In this document: piece after piece, positions 1 through 20,453 of the stretch
Position numbering within the stretch: position 1 is the stretch's first letter
How the letters are laid out: each line of letters starts with the position of its first letter
Sequence record: OK428535.1
Source: Escherichia phage vB_EcoM_Lh1B
Reading direction: 5' to 3' (one strand)
DNA length: 64,000 nucleotides
The notes under the pieces: model-generated
What the model saw: the letters and a program-made list of their open reading frames with translations, nothing else
The model's database searches: none
What the model was told of the DNA's origin: nothing
Translations under genes and position numbers: made by a program

Positions 1-984
1 TATTAAGATCTTAAAACGCGTGCAGGCGCGCGCGTGATCCTTATTAAGAGATCGTGATCGGACGGAAGTCCTAGTTTGGGTACCCTGTGTATTTTTTACG
101 TGGTTTCCCTATCGTGTGTTCAGACCACCACTCGATGTCCAAAAACCCATAGCTTCGGTGGTCGCCTCCCTGGTCGGTAGACTCTGACAAGTCGACCCAC
201 AACACCAACCCGTCCGGGGACGGATTTTTATTCCAACGACAAGCTCCACGAAAATCCCCGCAGAGGGACTCACTGCTGTGTGACTCACCGGCTCCTGGAC
301 GCCTACGCCTCGAGCCGGTAATTTTTTGATTACGTGAGTTTGTTGTTATATGCGAATAGCGATTGACCGCGCCAATGGTCCAATCACTTTTAAACCCTGT
401 ACGCTAGGGCTCCAAGTCCTGGGATTGTTACCCAGGACGCTTTTTCGAAAATACCTACCGTGGTGTCTTCGACAAAGCGCAATCTAACACTGCGTGATTT
501 ATTATGTTCTGGAAAACTTTCGCCGTGGAACAGAACCGGTGAGCGTCGGCGGGGATTCCGACAATCACCACCCATTCAGGTACTCGGTAAATAACCGACC
601 TGCCGACGGTGCTACGTCGGGCGTAGTTCGGTTTGCGAGAGTGTCGAGAAAGTCGACTGCGCACCCATGACAAAATCCGAGTTGACCGTGGCAGCGCCAG
701 AGGACTGGGCAGCGGAGAGACGTCGTTGAACTTACCTCCGATAGTTATCGCTGATTCCGCTCTGGCGTCGGGCCAAAACTGATTCGAATTCGGCGTTGCG
801 TCGAAAAGGGGTCTGCGTGTAGAACCGCAGACTTGGGGGATGACTCCAGACGGAGGTGGTCATATCTTGCCGGCTCGGAACAGACGAGAGGGGTGGGTAC
901 TCCCGTTGAGAAACGACGGTACCTGGCTGATTAAAATTTACAGATTCTGCGTGAGGTATGATAAACCAAACGGAGAATTAAATC

Positions 985-1560
985 ATGAACTTGTATCGCA
1001 TCGGGTTTTACCGGAACGAGGTACCAGAATCGGTTTTGGTTGTCTTAGCCGAAAACGAGGAGCAGGCCAAATCCTTCTGGCCGGTTAGCGCAGAGCGTAC
1101 AGCGGTTGCGTGCTGCTACGACGGTCCAGTTGCCGCAACGGATGTCGCTGCAGGCGTAGTCCTGAAGATGGGCCGATGGGAAGATTACTCCCATCCCGGT
1201 TTGGAGTTTGTTTCCGAACCTGCCAGACATTCCTGGGAATTTCCCTCAGGCAACACCGAGACGTATTTCGGATTTCAGGTTAAACAACCTTCGACGCTCA
1301 AACTGTACCTGGTGTACAGCGACGCCGCTACCGAAGACTACGTCGATTCCGGAATCATCGTCGGGGCAACAACCCCTGCTGCGGCATTCGCACATTGGGA
1401 CGGTGATAAACCCGGAATCGTTTCGGTCTGTGAGCTACCACTTGAAGCCGGTTTGGTTACGAACATCAAGTGTGAGCAAGGCCAGGAGCTGACTTGGATC
1501 CGCCAGGATTACCTGACGGAAACGACATTCGAGTACACACCGAGGAAGGTGACCCAATGA
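985..1560 (+). CDS. hypothetical protein
   Basis: 191-aa ORF, ATG 8 nt after GGAGA; N-terminal ~40 aa resemble the N-terminus of ORF 2283..2525 (MNLY..., ...VAAPTEQA...). Confidence 0.5.
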   Translation: MNLYRIGFYRNEVPESVLVVLAENEEQAKSFWPVSAERTAVACCYDGPVAATDVAAGVVLKMGRWEDYSHPGLEFVSEPARHSWEFPSGNTETYFGFQVKQPSTLKLYLVYSDAATEDYVDSGIIVGATTPAAAFAHWDGDKPGIVSVCELPLEAGLVTNIKCEQGQELTWIRQDYLTETTFEYTPRKVTQ

Positions 1561-2048
1561 CCACGATAGCGTTCGATGGAAAAGTCTTAGCTGCTGACGG
1601 CCAGTTAACCCGTGGGTCGAATATCTGCAACCTGAATACCCAGAAGTTATTCGTCTGTCCTCCTGACGAGGAGTGGTGGATTACCGGTGAACGAATTGTG
1701 GTGTTCGGGGTAAGCGGCGACATCACAGGACAATTGGCCCTGCTGGAAACGGTCCGCTTGAGACCCGGCTACAAGGGGTTAACACAAAGCTCGCAGTTAC
1801 CTGCGAAGATGGATTTTACTTTCCTGATGCTTTTGGCCTCAGGAAAAGCGATAGTCGGTGGGAAGCGTGAAGACGACGTGTCGTTGTGGTGGAGTGAAGC
1901 CACACCACCTCTGGCAACCGGAAGCGGTTACGAGTATGCGTTGGGTGCGATGAAGATGGGCGCGAATGCGGTTCGTGCTGTTGAGATTGCGTCCGAATGC
2001 GATATCTACACCGGTGGTGAGATTAGCACTTACGAACTACGGAGGTGA
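1557..2048 (+). CDS. hypothetical protein
   Basis: ATG overlaps upstream stop (ATGA), GAGGAAGG upstream; 164 aa (MTTIAFDG...). Confidence 0.45.
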   Translation: MTTIAFDGKVLAADGQLTRGSNICNLNTQKLFVCPPDEEWWITGERIVVFGVSGDITGQLALLETVRLRPGYKGLTQSSQLPAKMDFTFLMLLASGKAIVGGKREDDVSLWWSEATPPLATGSGYEYALGAMKMGANAVRAVEIASECDIYTGGEISTYELRR

Positions 2049-2140
2049 ATCATGCGGGAGTCAGAAGCACGCAAGCTTGACCCCATCAATCGCCTGCGAT
2101 AACGGGGTAGCGCATCCGTATAAACACGTTAAAGAATTCT

Positions 2141-2216
2141 AGGAAAGTGACGCAATTGGTAGCGTACCGGTCTCCAAAACCGGCTGTTTAGAGTTCGAGT
2201 CTCTACTTTCCTGCCA
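2141..2216 (+). tRNA. tRNA-Trp (anticodon CCA), 3' CCA encoded
   Basis: Hand-folded cloverleaf: 7-bp acceptor AGGAAAG/CTTTCCT, D-stem ACGC/GCGT, anticodon stem CCGGT/ACCGG with loop CTCCAAA, T-arm TAGAG-TTCGAGT-CTCTA, discriminator G then CCA. Confidence 0.85.
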
Positions 2217-2282
2217 CATTTAGCCAACAAGGCCATGATTCAAAGCAGAATGACACCGAATGTCTAACTGCGGAGAATAATC

Positions 2283-2525
2283 ATGAACTTGTATTTGCTA
2301 GAACGAACTGACGATATCGGGTATGATGAATTTGATTCCATAATCGTGGCGGCTCCTACGGAGCAAGCTGCGTGTGCAATTCCTCCCGACTGTGGTCATT
2401 GGATGGACTGCCGCTGGTTACCGAAAGAGCGCTGGGATGAAGGGCTTACCCTGACCGTTACTCTTATCGGTACTACGCACTATCCTGCTGGGACCGTCGT
2501 TCATGAATCGTTCAATGCTGGCTAA
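2283..2525 (+). CDS. hypothetical protein
   Basis: 80-aa ORF, ATG 8 nt after GGAGA; N-terminus resembles ORF 985..1560. Confidence 0.45.
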   Translation: MNLYLLERTDDIGYDEFDSIIVAAPTEQAACAIPPDCGHWMDCRWLPKERWDEGLTLTVTLIGTTHYPAGTVVHESFNAG

Positions 2526-3300
2526 ACAGTGGGCTTCGGCCCACTAACCCTATTCGAGCCGTGATACTTACTCAGATTGTGCGGGTTGATGTCCCGCATG
2601 AGCCGGTAGCAGCTCAGACCTACGGTAGACCAATAAATCCGTAGCAGCCAGGTACACAAAGCACCAGGTCGCTTGTACAGGATGCTGGGTATCTGACCGG
2701 TCATAACCTCATTCGATACGAGACACGTTTATGCATGAAATACTCCAGTACATCAGGATGTTGATTTCCAACGTCCGGTTCTGGGTATTCAATCATGTTT
2801 GGTTTACAGGCGATGGGTTTTCCCGCAAGGGCCCCACTTACAGACTGGCGTCTCCACGACAACCGTCCCTAGGGGACAGGCAAGCACCGGCCCATTAAGC
2901 CGCCACGCTACGCCTGTAAATCCACAATCTGATAACCGAATGGGATTGAGTTCCCAGTGTTAGGGTGACTATGTGTCACCGTAGGCGCGGTACCTCATAC
3001 GGCCGGTACGCCACGAATGTACGTGATAGCGGGTGGTGCTTGGAGACGCTAAGACCTGACCTTGCGGCCAGGCTCAGAAGAAGAAGTCCATCACCCGCAT
3101 TCAGAAATGAATTTAGGTTAATTATTGGAAGTGATGAAATCGTTTACGTGATAACTTAGTAGTATGCAACGAACAATACCAGAGTGACTTTACGAGGTTA
3201 CTGTGGTATATGTCGGTGCTCCGGGCAACGTGTTGCCGTAGATAAGCCCGAGGGAGCTGAGTGCACTAACACACACCGGGATGCACCGGCACCTTACAAT

Positions 3301-3370
3301 GGCTTTGTAGCTCAGGTAGGTAGAGCAACCTCTTCGAGGAAGGTCGCCGGTTCGAGTCCGGTCAAAGCAA
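3301..3370 (+). tRNA. tRNA-like element, non-canonical (possible pseudo-tRNA)
   Basis: Canonical D-arm GCTC-AGGTAGGTA-GAGC and T-arm GCCGG-TTCGAGT-CCGGT, 6-bp acceptor; the segment between them is too short for a standard anticodon arm plus variable loop. Confidence 0.4.
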
Positions 3371-3371
3371 G

Positions 3372-3447
3372 AGCAGCGAAGTTAGAGGAATTAACACCCG
3401 ACTCATAATCGGATATTTCGACGGTTCGAATCCGTGCCGTTTGCTCG
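3372..3447 (+). tRNA. tRNA-like fragment with Met-type anticodon loop (CTCATAA)
   Basis: Stem-loop CCGA-CTCATAA-TCGG and T-arm ACGG-TTCGAAT-CCGT are visible, but I could not close an acceptor stem. Confidence 0.25.
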
Positions 3448-3828
3448 CCCCATTTGTGTTATCCTTATCCCGAAGGCATTCGAAATAAGACGCGTATCCA
3501 CACACGGGTCAAGGGTAACACGAACCACTTCCGCGGTCACCGTGTCCATTGCCGCCTACCTGCATGGGCTGTCCTCCGACACGGTGACTTCGGGCCAACT
3601 TACAGGCCAGGGCCGTTTGGGTTTTTCTTACGCATCCATCCAGAGCCACCTCGCGCCCTAGTCTGTTACCCCTTTTCTGTTCCTGGTTTGCCAACTAAAT
3701 CAATTAAGCCTGGTGCGTTGCCCTGGGAACAGAAAAACTTATTCGGTTACACACCGAACCCACCCACGAGGGATATGTCGTGGACTACCAATAGAAGCAG
3801 CAATAGTAGAAGTAAGAAGGAAAGCAAC

Positions 3829-4800: not shown

Positions 4801-4827
4801 AGATAGATATTACCTAAGTGAGATGAG
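4801..4827 (+). promoter_or_regulatory. promoter-like motif AGATAGATATTACCTAAGTGAGATGAG
   Basis: Member of a recurrent motif family (see findings); sits between a terminator and the ATG at 4875. Confidence 0.5.
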
Positions 4828-18676: not shown

Positions 18677-18732
18677 CAGGCTGAAATCGTAGTAAGTCTA
18701 TCGATTCCAAACTTGAAGGTGCAATGGCACCG
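18677..18732 (+). repeat. copy B of ~58-bp direct repeat (intergenic, includes ATG of next gene)
   Basis: caggctgaaatcgtagtaagtctatcgattccaaacttgaaggtgcaatggcaccg; ends in the first three codons of ORF 18724. Confidence 0.8.
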
Positions 18733-20250
18733 ATTGACAGAATGAGAAAGGTACCAAAATTCTACGGAATATCCGGCCGGTTGGTTAGTCAGGATAACTA
18801 TTTGTCCGATTTGCAAATAGAAGCTGCTGCCAAAGGTATTAAACCACCCACTATTATTAACGATGTCGCCGTTAACGGGGATGCGATCGAGGTTGCTGAA
18901 CTTATCGATCGCATGGTACAGAACAGAATCGTTGACGAAGAACTGAACTCTGCACCGATTTGTAGTTTGGATTGTCCGGCACCGATCGCGCATCGTTACA
19001 ATCTCGGTTGTAAGTGTCCGACGTGTGGCTATGTTGTAACTGAACATCGAATTGAATCCGATGTCTGGTTACGTGCACCTGATGAAATGGGTAACTTCGT
19101 CAACCCACGATTCTGGGCAATGTTCAATGCTTTCTTTAATAGCAAGTTGAAGAAGTTTGAACGTAACAAGGTCACTATCGAACGCGGTAATGACTTGATG
19201 ATGTGGATGATTGACCCGTATTACCGTATAGAAGAACCAGACGGTAAACGCGCACATGCTGTGAAACGTGTATTGGAAGAACATGGTTTCGTTCGTGGCT
19301 TGCGCAATCTGGTTGATAACCACGTTAGTATCTTTAACATCCTTACCACGCCAGAAGCCTGGAAGGAAATCTTCGCACCTAATCGGCATAACGCCGCTGA
19401 AGGTGAACGCTTACGTTTACAATGGAAGGAGCTATTCGAAACGCAACGTCACGCATTCTTTCCAAGACATTTACCGCTAATCTCCTCTAAACTTATCGTT
19501 ACTGAGGAAGGTCGTCGTGGTGTCATGGTAGACCCAGTGTTCACGGGTGCTATTGACGCGGTGAAAAATATCGCGTTGCTCTATACGCGGCGTAAAGCGA
19601 TCGAACCACGTTTTCTGATTAGTCGTGCTTTGAAGGCGAACCGTCAGCTAACGTACTTCCACATGGACTTCCGTCGTGAGTCTATGGAAGGTAAACCGGG
19701 TGACTATCGTGCGAAATTGGGTTCTACCCATATCCCGTTCGGTGGTCGTGCAACCATCTCACCTATCTCAGAACCACACGATGCCTGGAAGTTAAAAGCA
19801 CCGTGGCGTTGGATGGTTGGGTTGATGTCGACCCACATCGAGAACAAACTGCTACGACGGGGTTATTCGTCGCGGCAATGTGAGCGTATCGTTGCAAAAG
19901 CGGCAATGCAGTATGACCCGCTTGTAGACGAAATCTTTAAAGAACTGATTCGTGAATCCCCAGGCGGTCTTGGGATCATGGTCATACCGTTACGTAACCC
20001 AACGCTGGTACAGTTGTCTATTCAAACGCTGTACATCGATGAAGTTGTTACCGATGTTAACCAGTGTTCGCTGCGTATCTCTGACCGTGTGATCAAGATG
20101 GCTAACGGTTCGAAAAGAGCCCCATCGGACGGGAAACCTCTGATGCGTATTCTCCTGAAATGCTGGGAAACCCTAAAGCGTATCTACCAGAAATGGGGAC
20201 GAAAGTCTGAAACAACAGATACGATGGCCTACGCTAAACAATACTGCTAA
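18724..20250 (+). CDS. multisubunit RNA polymerase beta-prime-like subunit, N-terminal fragment
   Basis: Zinc-ribbon CSLDC...CKCPTCGYVVT (cf. beta-prime CxC...CxxCGVEVT); ELIRESP and RNPTLVQLSIQT match beta-prime EVIREHP / RAPTLHRLGIQA. Confidence 0.65.
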   Translation: MAPIDRMRKVPKFYGISGRLVSQDNYLSDLQIEAAAKGIKPPTIINDVAVNGDAIEVAELIDRMVQNRIVDEELNSAPICSLDCPAPIAHRYNLGCKCPTCGYVVTEHRIESDVWLRAPDEMGNFVNPRFWAMFNAFFNSKLKKFERNKVTIERGNDLMMWMIDPYYRIEEPDGKRAHAVKRVLEEHGFVRGLRNLVDNHVSIFNILTTPEAWKEIFAPNRHNAAEGERLRLQWKELFETQRHAFFPRHLPLISSKLIVTEEGRRGVMVDPVFTGAIDAVKNIALLYTRRKAIEPRFLISRALKANRQLTYFHMDFRRESMEGKPGDYRAKLGSTHIPFGGRATISPISEPHDAWKLKAPWRWMVGLMSTHIENKLLRRGYSSRQCERIVAKAAMQYDPLVDEIFKELIRESPGGLGIMVIPLRNPTLVQLSIQTLYIDEVVTDVNQCSLRISDRVIKMANGSKRAPSDGKPLMRILLKCWETLKRIYQKWGRKSETTDTMAYAKQYC

Positions 20251-20453
20251 CGGTTGTGATAATGGGTAATCAGCAGCGAAGCCTCGTGAGAGGAACGTTC
20301 AACGACTATCGCTGAAATGCGAGTAGGGGTCCCAGTGGACTTCGAAGTGGGAGAACACCTAAGGCGATAGCTATGGTGAAGATATAGTCTGTGCCTTATC
20401 GAGAGATAAGGAGGGTGTCTTAGCACACCTGCTGTATACGGAAACGGTATACG

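Follow-up and report, generated by a model that had tools for sequence, protein, structure and literature searches.

A conserved non-coding locus with plus-strand RNA structure in SPN3US-like jumbo phages

Phage T4 encodes two stable small RNAs, "species 1 and 2" (rnaC and rnaD), which lie within its tRNA cluster and are processed from the transcript of that cluster. The Rfam families GOLLD and ROOL are large, elaborately folded non-coding RNAs (ncRNAs) of phages and prophages, often found beside tRNA genes. Here, we analyze a gene-free region of Escherichia phage vB_EcoM_Lh1B (record OK428535.1), positions 1-984 of a window of 64,000 nucleotides (nt). We consider it reasonably likely that this region is the right part of a conserved, single-copy ncRNA locus of SPN3US-like nucleus-forming jumbo phages. 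In phiKZ and 201phi2-1, which are likewise nucleus-forming jumbo phages with their own RNA polymerases, small RNAs have been mapped by ONT-cappable-seq. These consist of a start site closely followed by an intrinsic terminator, giving RNAs of <250 nt, one of which adjoins a tRNA gene and one of which is conserved between genera by position and fold (PMC11512511).

The locus shares some features with each of these systems and differs in others. Whereas the RNAs of phiKZ and 201phi2-1 are short and experimentally mapped, the elements described here are predicted from sequence and sit in a gene-free gap of 1.8 kilobases (kb), where they are joined to a 250-nt multi-helix domain. Its size would be comparable to that of GOLLD and ROOL if 330-935 were one transcript (~0.6 kb). 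Such a single long transcript is hypothetical here, however, and the locus departs from both families in its internal terminator-like signals, its narrow range (SPN3US-like phages only), and the lack of any Rfam match (E up to 10). As in T4, a putative RNA of a virulent phage is encoded near tRNA genes, but here 1.2 kb and two protein genes separate it from the downstream tRNA-Trp.

A conserved gene-free gap

The region belongs to a longer gap shared by SPN3US-like phages. The first 3 kb of the window match the start of Escherichia phage vB_EcoM_EC001 at 98% identity; for Salmonella phage SPN3US and related members of the genus Seoulvirus (240-kb jumbo phages), the identity is 93-97%. Window position 1 is the arbitrary first base of a SPN3US-like record, and the locus is internal in records that were opened elsewhere. 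The gap is really ~1.76 kb long, and the window holds its last 984 nt (the right-hand 56%). Thus, the ~1-kb leader free of open reading frames (ORFs) described in the initial annotation is indeed gene-free, but its length merely reflects truncation by the window edge. In phage SPLA5c, the gap spans 1775 nt and window position 1 corresponds to its base 789, while the EC001 record continues for 773 nt after its last gene.

The position of the locus is retained in six lineages and in metagenomic contigs. The relatives compared were Seoulvirus SPAsTU and Erwinia phage pEa_SNUABM_29, Erskinevirus phiEaH2, Machinavirus pEa_SNUABM_9 and Caitlin, Wellingtonvirus pEa_SNUABM_11, and a 222-kb circular "plasmid" of a clinical E. 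coli (98232). Every relative of these lineages that we examined has a gap of 1.3-2.1 kb at the same place (1.3-1.7 kb in SPAsTU, pEa_SNUABM_29, phiEaH2, pEa_SNUABM_9, and pEa_SNUABM_11; 2.1 kb in E. coli 98232). In each, the upstream neighbor is a conserved gene of ~1.1 kb, and in most lineages an HslV-like peptidase gene and tRNA genes lie downstream. The gene directly after the gap varies by lineage, being a 191-amino-acid (aa) ORF here and another ORF in SPAsTU, pEa_SNUABM_29, and pEa_SNUABM_11. The locus is syntenic in Seoulvirus, Erskinevirus, Machinavirus, and Wellingtonvirus, and two islands within the gap are detectable by plain BLAST across all four genera, the second of which is window 683-931. 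The initial annotation had tied its proposal to conservation of the region in related phages, and the structures of the gap are indeed retained across the six lineages.

Pattern scans of metagenomes and genomes gave 57 matches, most of them by chance to a 19-nt pattern. True homologues numbered 11, all of them metagenome loci and several identical in sequence, whereas the 10 genome loci included none. The next relatives out, the Derbicusvirus phages CR5 and Derbicus, share the upstream gene and have a gap of just 420-550 nt with no match to R1, the covariance model described below. In the search for a host homologue, no E. coli chromosome matched, and the only match was the 222-kb "plasmid", itself a related phage. 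This record (NZ_CP173450.1; p98232-contig_4 of E. coli 98232, a urine isolate; 221,873 base pairs (bp), circular, annotated as a plasmid) carries the same locus within 147800-155875: the gap measures 2.1 kb and the AT tract 195 nt, the two-hairpin module is present, the structured RNA scores 86 bits, and a tRNA gene lies downstream. It is evidently the genome of a divergent SPN3US-like jumbo phage.

The hypothetical gene at 985-1560 (191 aa) is found in EC001, JN03, SPLA5c, and the SPFM phages. It is missing from SPN3US, SEGD1, and SPLA3, where the HslV-like gene stands directly after the gap, an indel of one whole gene. Several of the LR5359xx assemblies (Salmonella phages SPFM1, 5-10, 12, 14, 15, and 20) match the window as 13-40 short pieces of 96-99% identity, which suggests noisy or error-rich assemblies in this region.

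Positions 1-984 hold no annotated gene in most records and no conserved gene. In that sense, the earlier statement that no plus-strand ORF of at least 60 aa precedes position 985 stands, but taken literally it does not, as an 82-aa ORF with an ATG start occupies 840-1088 in a different frame from the gene at 985. SPLA5c and SPFM4 have ATA in place of this ATG. Two further ORFs lie on the minus strand (72 aa at 455-673 and 61 aa at 390-575). When compared with SPAsTU and pEa_SNUABM_29, every gap ORF of at least 40 aa has mismatches spread evenly across codon positions, together with in-frame stops and indels that shift the frame. In the flanking control genes, mismatches are concentrated at third positions (e.g., 19/5/51). 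We thus rejected the small ORFs as genes, with frames broken in relatives and no codon periodicity. The gap is 67-75% identical to SPAsTU and pEa_SNUABM_29, while the neighboring HslV-like gene is 48-52% identical. Judged from these alignments, the gap is non-coding yet constrained. This corrects the annotation of deposited genomes, which call either nothing here or spurious small ORFs; many records are also cut open inside the locus, which hides it.

RNA structures of the plus strand

The main feature of the gap, overlooked in the initial annotation, is a structured domain of ~250 nt on the plus strand at 683-931. In an alignment of 15 distinct sequences, it comprises 10 helices with 60 bp. 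A long-range helix, P1 (686-689 with 870-873), closes a multi-branch domain that includes P2 (690-692 with 772-774), P3 (694-701 with 761-768), P3c (712-714 with 749-751), P3b (722-728 with 736-742, with the conserved loop GAACUUACC), P4 (790-795 with 799-804), P5 (810-820 with 824-833), and the dispensable P6 (844-846 with 853-855). Two hairpins follow, P7 (874-877 with 885-888) and P8 (891-907 with 912-928), the latter capped by a GNRA tetraloop. A core of 29 nt (865-893) is almost invariant in all lineages and is a likely candidate binding site for a protein or another RNA.

Covariation in the helices is strong. Standard pairs fill 93.3% of 897 alignment cells, versus 84.6 ± 0.6% in shuffled alignments and 34-49% with slid partners. 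There are 24 pairs changed on both sides, versus 17.2 ± 1.8 in shuffles (0 of 500 as high) and 4-8 with slid partners. A model-made alignment that includes Wellingtonvirus is 92.6% paired. Because G·U cells far outnumber A·C cells (125 versus 9), the plus strand pairs better (93% of cells) than the minus strand (80%). Windowed alignment folding of 664-970 also scores better on the plus than on the minus strand (-7.0 versus -3.8 and -4.1 versus -2.2), and across 216-547 and 664-970 together the z scores run from -3 to -7. Sequences from Wellingtonvirus, unalignable in the middle, were folded independently and show the same architecture, a P1-closed multi-branch domain with two 3' hairpins, the last of which bears a GNRA tetraloop.

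The domain matches no known RNA family. A covariance model of its 3' part (R1; 787-931) finds one site in the reconstructed 240-kb genome, and recovers Wellingtonvirus and the E. coli 98232 phage, which were not in the seed, at 76-86 bits. The search with Infernal and Rfam that had been proposed for the region returned no known family: Rfam 15 finds nothing in 1-984 at gathering scores (including GOLLD, ROOL, group I and II introns, riboswitches, tmRNA, RNase P, and 6S) and nothing credible in the whole SPLA5c gap at E up to 10. The literature that we searched holds no description of the locus. These comparisons make the RNA a new family in the established category of phage-encoded structured ncRNAs. 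The sequence ACGAGAGG in the core resembles the sarcin-ricin loop of 23S rRNA, but we dismissed this as coincidental, since the likeness spans 8 nt and the structural contexts differ.

Helix P6 tolerates both loss and insertion. It is deleted in the E. coli 98232 phage and is the insertion point of a 615-nt cassette in Erwinia phage Kwan and in phage Wellington. The cassette carries an HNH endonuclease ORF (Pfam HNH_3, 24.6 bits), and its start resembles the Rfam int-alpA RNA (31 bits, below the threshold of 35.8), followed by a T-run. It is not present in the close relatives uvL023 and pEa_SNUABM_11. The Kwan insertion was also considered as a group I intron and rejected, as there is no intron match and it is an HNH cassette with an int-alpA-like motif.

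The three hairpins with T-runs reported in the initial annotation are present on the plus strand, and two of them hold up as structures. Hairpin 1 (209-232; CCGTC CGGG GACGG ATTTTTATT) is weak, at -7.2 kcal/mol and z +0.3, with 112 of 200 shuffles folding as well; it sits at the same position with altered bases in SPAsTU and is degenerate in pEa_SNUABM_29. Hairpin 2 (288-327; CCGGCTC...GAGCCGG TAATTTTTTG) is terminator-like, at -19.6 kcal/mol and z -4.7, and hairpin 3 (416-447; GTCCTGGG...CCCAGGAC, then GCTTTTTCGA) reaches -15.2 kcal/mol and z -3.7, with none of 200 shuffles as good for either. The base of the hairpin 2 stem is conserved and its inner part is remodeled in SPAsTU and pEa_SNUABM_29, while phiEaH2, pEa_SNUABM_9, and Caitlin have a strong hairpin with a T-run 60-140 nt upstream of their own hairpin 3. 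All three U-runs (ATTTTTATT, TAATTTTTTG, and GCTTTTTCGA) directly follow their stems, and the stems of hairpins 2 and 3, but not that of hairpin 1, have the stable GC-rich form of intrinsic terminators. A consensus scan finds seven terminator-like sites in 1-3500 versus 3.6 ± 2.2 expected, a count that is not significant alone. We therefore judge the hairpins real because they are conserved and not because of their number.

Hairpin 3 is conserved in position but not in stem sequence. In a simple terminator scan of the gaps, every one of the six lineages has a strong hairpin with a T-run at its position, built from unrelated stems (GTCCTGGG.., CACCCTGG.., CGCCTCG.., GCCCCG.., and CCCCCTGG..). 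The tail CTTTTTCGAG is almost invariant, with the pattern (C/G/T)TTTTTTC(G/A)A(G/A). Its U-run is also the 5' strand of a second hairpin (439-478; GCUUUUUCGAA...UUCGACAAAGC), after which CTAACAC (484-490) is near-invariant. The resulting two-hairpin module, 416-478, is the minimum-energy fold in ~18 sequences from six lineages. In all of them, its outer helix joins the U-run GCUUUUUCGAG to the downstream strand CUCGACAAAGC, which is GGAAAAC in Wellingtonvirus and GGGAAAAAC in the E. coli 98232 phage. This helix shifts from UUUUUCGAG/CUCGAAAAA to UUUUUC/GGAAAA, and the inner stem of the second hairpin varies by compensatory substitution. Wherever the HNH insertion is absent, 317-433 nt separate the module from the downstream core of the 3' domain.

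These features make hairpin 3 half of a conserved two-hairpin module and not a simple terminator. Like intrinsic terminators, the elements combine a GC-rich stem-loop with an immediate U-run on the transcribed strand, and position is kept while the stem drifts. Unlike them, hairpin 3 has a U-run of just 5 U that pairs with a conserved, A-rich downstream strand in read-through RNA, and hairpin 1 is marginal. Since the U-run pairs with this conserved strand, some transcripts must read through hairpin 3. It may still stop RNA polymerase, with a functional RNA that at least sometimes extends past it. The only alternative pairing found involves sequence downstream of the U-run; no antiterminator was identified upstream, where no systematic search was made.

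Promoter-like elements, other conserved blocks, and the AT-rich tract

Three elements on the plus strand resemble promoters. The first (89-114; TATTTTTTACGTGGTTTCCCTATC) consists of a T-run, TTTACG, 10 nt, and TATC, and is conserved as TTTTTTAC(G/A) in Seoulvirus, Erskinevirus, and Wellingtonvirus. The second is the 54-nt block TTTTTTGATTACGTGAGTTTGTTGTTATATGCGAATAGCGATTGACCGCGCCA (322-375), which directly follows hairpin 2 with a T-run, TTAC, 13 nt, and TATATG; three Seoulvirus lineages hardly differ in it, and phiEaH2 matches it at 88% identity over 33 nt. The third (935-960) reads AAAATTTACAG, 14 nt, GGTATG, and is followed by a leader, a Shine-Dalgarno GGAG, and the ATG at 985 (931-984 in all). 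After the RNA, TTTTTTAC(A/G)G followed by (G/T)TATG recurs in most lineages. The late promoters of phiKZ are defined by TATG at the start site (PMC7598289), and for this reason we read these arrangements of T-run/TTTAC(R)...TAT(G/C) as candidate phage promoters, by inference only.

The pattern TTTACR-N9-15-TATS has nine matches in the window, all on the plus strand and six of them non-coding, with 4.0 ± 2.1 expected. Two of these six precede a tRNA-like gene at 3301-3370 (and 3143-3212), the second such gene, which scores 40.9 bits in Rfam, is missed by ARAGORN, and is called "tRNA-OTHER" in SPN3US. An A-rich stretch with ACTTA was rejected as a general promoter motif, as it does not recur in the window. 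An AT-rich motif of 12 nt, (A)TAGATATTATCT, occurs on the plus strand at 4804, 7770, 16657, 16750, 25207, 26623, and 30366, mostly 30-50 nt before gene starts, and has no copy in 1-984. It is probably the early promoter class expected for the virion RNA polymerase.

Several smaller blocks of the plus strand are conserved as well. A hairpin at 123-163 (GACCACC...GGTGGTC) precedes an invariant single-stranded block at 181-197 (ACTCTGACAAGTCGACC); the stems of 123-197 are invariant and so provide no covariation evidence. In a small hairpin at 395-409 (CCCTG-TACGC-TAGGG), part of the minimum-energy fold of 350-448 (z -3.5), G-U/G-C exchanges keep the pairing in SPAsTU and pEa_SNUABM_29. Two more conserved hairpins, GTTCTG...CAGAAC at 506-536 and GGTGA(GCGTCGG...CCGAC)TCACC at 538-569, are followed by the conserved TTCAGGTACTCGG at 575-587. 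Windowed alignment folding gives z scores of -3 to -6 over 216-547 and -2 to -5 over 438-586, with no signal over 548-660. In the half of the gap upstream of the window (~790 nt), the z score falls to -8 at -309 to -193 on both strands, and there is a conserved T-rich/AACC motif with a hairpin, GTAACCGACA...TGTCGGTTAC. Further RNA elements may lie left of the AT tract.

An AT-rich, GATC-dense tract sits at the left end of the window. It runs from -96 to +12 (108 nt, 93% A+T), is largely palindromic, and is bordered by alternating CG runs and GATC sites. Its right flank (1-62) has GATC sites at 7, 36, 50, and 56, an alternating CG run ACGCGTGCAGGCGCGCGCGTG at ~16-36, and CGTGATCCTTATTAAGAGATC, which is conserved across genera. 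In a genome rebuilt from the window and four pieces, the tract is the 100-nt stretch of lowest GC in 240 kb (6%, versus 26% for the next), and 7-8 GATC within 240 nt form the densest cluster genome-wide (Poisson P ~8e-7), 3 and 4 sites flanking the tract. The genome as a whole is poor in GATC (498 sites in 240 kb, roughly half of the composition-based expectation), although it encodes a DNA adenine methylase (ACEC001_1080). Seoulvirus, Erskinevirus, Machinavirus, and Wellingtonvirus all have the tract, and in E. coli 98232 it extends to 195 nt. Its flanks and its short central palindrome are likewise conserved across genera, the latter as ATACCTTTAGGTAT, TATCCCGTAGGGATA, or ATATCTTTAGATAT according to lineage. 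Machinavirus lacks the GATC cluster, with only 3 GATC in the whole pEa_SNUABM_9 gap.

We suggest that the tract is probably a separate DNA-level element, a candidate replication origin or packaging (pac) site. The P1 pac site and the origins of T4/T7 type, in which a promoter accompanies an AT-rich unwinding element, are the systems with which it compares. It shares with them a unique site, flanking T-rich promoter-like elements, and a phage with a Dam-type methylase, and the GATC sites on both sides of its AT-rich core may correspond to the Dam-site clusters of P1 pac. Unlike them, it loses its GATC clustering in Machinavirus and shows no identified IHF site or iterons. The origin-like character proposed in the initial annotation can thus be kept for 1-62, with most of the tract upstream of the window, and not for the rest of 1-984. 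A unique AT-rich region of the kind that unwinds at origins is present, while no initiator boxes or skew switch were found. The suggested check for iteron-like repeats gave weak two-copy matches and no repeat families, and cumulative GC skew of the rebuilt genome mirrors gene orientation only and carries no origin information. Pairs of repeats ~320-345 nt apart hint at tandem duplication of modules, an idea that we rejected because the repeats are so short. Several deposited records begin at the tract or no more than ~200 nt from it, which may reflect assembly breaks in a pure-AT hairpin or a copied reference orientation. A search of the literature found nothing on an SPN3US origin or pac site.

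The proposed non-coding RNA locus and its rivals

The absence of coding, the conservation, the plus-strand structure with covariation, the single copy, and the lineage range carry the ncRNA reading. What goes beyond them we infer: where promoters and transcript ends lie, that termination is partial, that the RNA acts in trans, and any function. The locus is probably transcribed rightward, on the plus strand, from starts at the promoter-like elements near 89-114 and 322-352. The hairpin/U-run signals at 288-327 and 416-447 would release part of the polymerases to give RNAs of ~100-200 nt, and the remaining polymerases would pass the two-hairpin module at 416-478, the further hairpins, and then the ~250-nt domain at 683-931. 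The element at 935-960 would be the promoter of the first protein-coding gene. Most likely, the locus yields one or more stable structured RNAs that act in trans, and a leader for one particular gene is unlikely, because the downstream gene differs between lineages and most lineages have a separate promoter-like element. The short non-coding transcripts suggested in the initial annotation gain comparative support from the plus-strand structure, compensatory changes, G-U wobbles, and stem turnover.

Some observations weigh against this proposal. Shuffle controls overstate significance where the aligned sequences are related, as they are here; the slid controls are unaffected. Alignment folding of 74-250 is no better than that of shuffled alignments, and hairpin 1 is likewise without signal. 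The promoter-like motif rests on nine matches, a number modestly above chance. In pEa_SNUABM_9, uvL020, and mgL050, no promoter-like motif follows the RNA and the first gene starts directly after it; in these three, the RNA would be part of the 5' untranslated region (UTR) of that gene. Transcripts of SPN3US-like phages were sought in the literature and none were found. Transcripts of phiKZ and 201phi2-1 mapped with long reads reveal functional intrinsic terminators and premature termination just after starts, which yields small RNAs, and for 201phi2-1 premature termination is accompanied by hints of antitermination (PMC11512511). Since transcripts of related phages show short RNAs, terminators, and such hints, a small-RNA and an attenuator reading are both biologically plausible.

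The main rival is a cis-acting leader with attenuators, which we regard as unlikely. In this case, one long 5' UTR would run from a promoter near 100 to the first gene, tandem terminators would restrain the downstream block (HslV-like peptidase and tRNA genes) until a phage antitermination factor acts, and the structured domain would be a loading or processing site. All elements point toward the downstream block, whose HslV-like and tRNA genes follow in most lineages examined, and the three phages with a gene directly after the RNA, the implied read-through of hairpin 3, and the premature termination and antitermination hints in 201phi2-1 would fit as well. However, the constant downstream gene of a cis-leader or riboswitch is not found: the immediate neighbor is not conserved (985-1560 is absent in SPN3US), which weakens the attenuators of the initial annotation, and in most lineages a promoter-like element of its own separates that gene from the RNA. 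No upstream antiterminator pairing was seen, in the absence of a systematic search, and the U-run pairs downstream, where it cannot prevent termination. A 250-nt domain of 10 helices with a 29-nt near-invariant core also exceeds the needs of an attenuator.

It is less probable still that the whole gap is a DNA-level cis element, an origin or packaging site whose hairpins are DNA structures or protein sites. The uniqueness of the AT tract and GATC cluster in the genome, the conserved central palindrome, the phage-encoded methylase, a terminase large-subunit gene 4 kb upstream, the record starts at or near the tract, and a 3 + 4 arrangement of GATC around an AT-rich core that recalls P1 pac all speak for such an element. 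For 62-984, this reading is disfavored by strand-specific pairing, as the excess of G·U over A·C and the better folding of the plus strand are not expected of DNA cruciforms, and stems turn over completely with pairing retained. Nor are there iterons or direct-repeat families, GC skew follows gene orientation, the GATC cluster is lost in Machinavirus, and the record starts may be assembly breaks or copied orientation. A former coding sequence in decay, or a spacer under little constraint with hairpins arising by chance, would explain why hairpin 1 and 74-250 fold no better than shuffled sequence and why the terminator-site count is not significant, but we find this highly improbable. Conservation equals or exceeds that of neighboring genes without a codon signal, covariation is strong, and the position is kept in six lineages and metagenomic contigs; for 288-931, the conservation without codon signal, the covariation, and the conserved two-hairpin fold refute it.

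Within the ncRNA reading, we tentatively raise the possibility that ~330-935 (possibly ~110-935) is one giant folded RNA of 0.6-0.8 kb, a new class specific to SPN3US-like phages. If so, the near-invariant 29-nt core would be its active or binding center, and the peripheral P6 would be a site that tolerates deletion as well as a 615-nt homing-endonuclease insertion. Beside an origin or pac site, such an RNA may act in replication, packaging, or the RNA traffic of the phage nucleus. Almost nothing is known of ncRNAs, origins, and packaging signals in nucleus-forming jumbo phages outside phiKZ. The locus offers three testable objects in a tractable model, SPN3US in Salmonella: a new structured RNA family whose covariation is unusually clear, a hairpin pair resembling a leaky terminator, and a candidate origin or pac site.

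Elsewhere in the window, Rfam identifies a group I intron (RF00028, 69 bits) at 20090-20411, either terminal in the ORF at 18724-20250 or immediately behind it.

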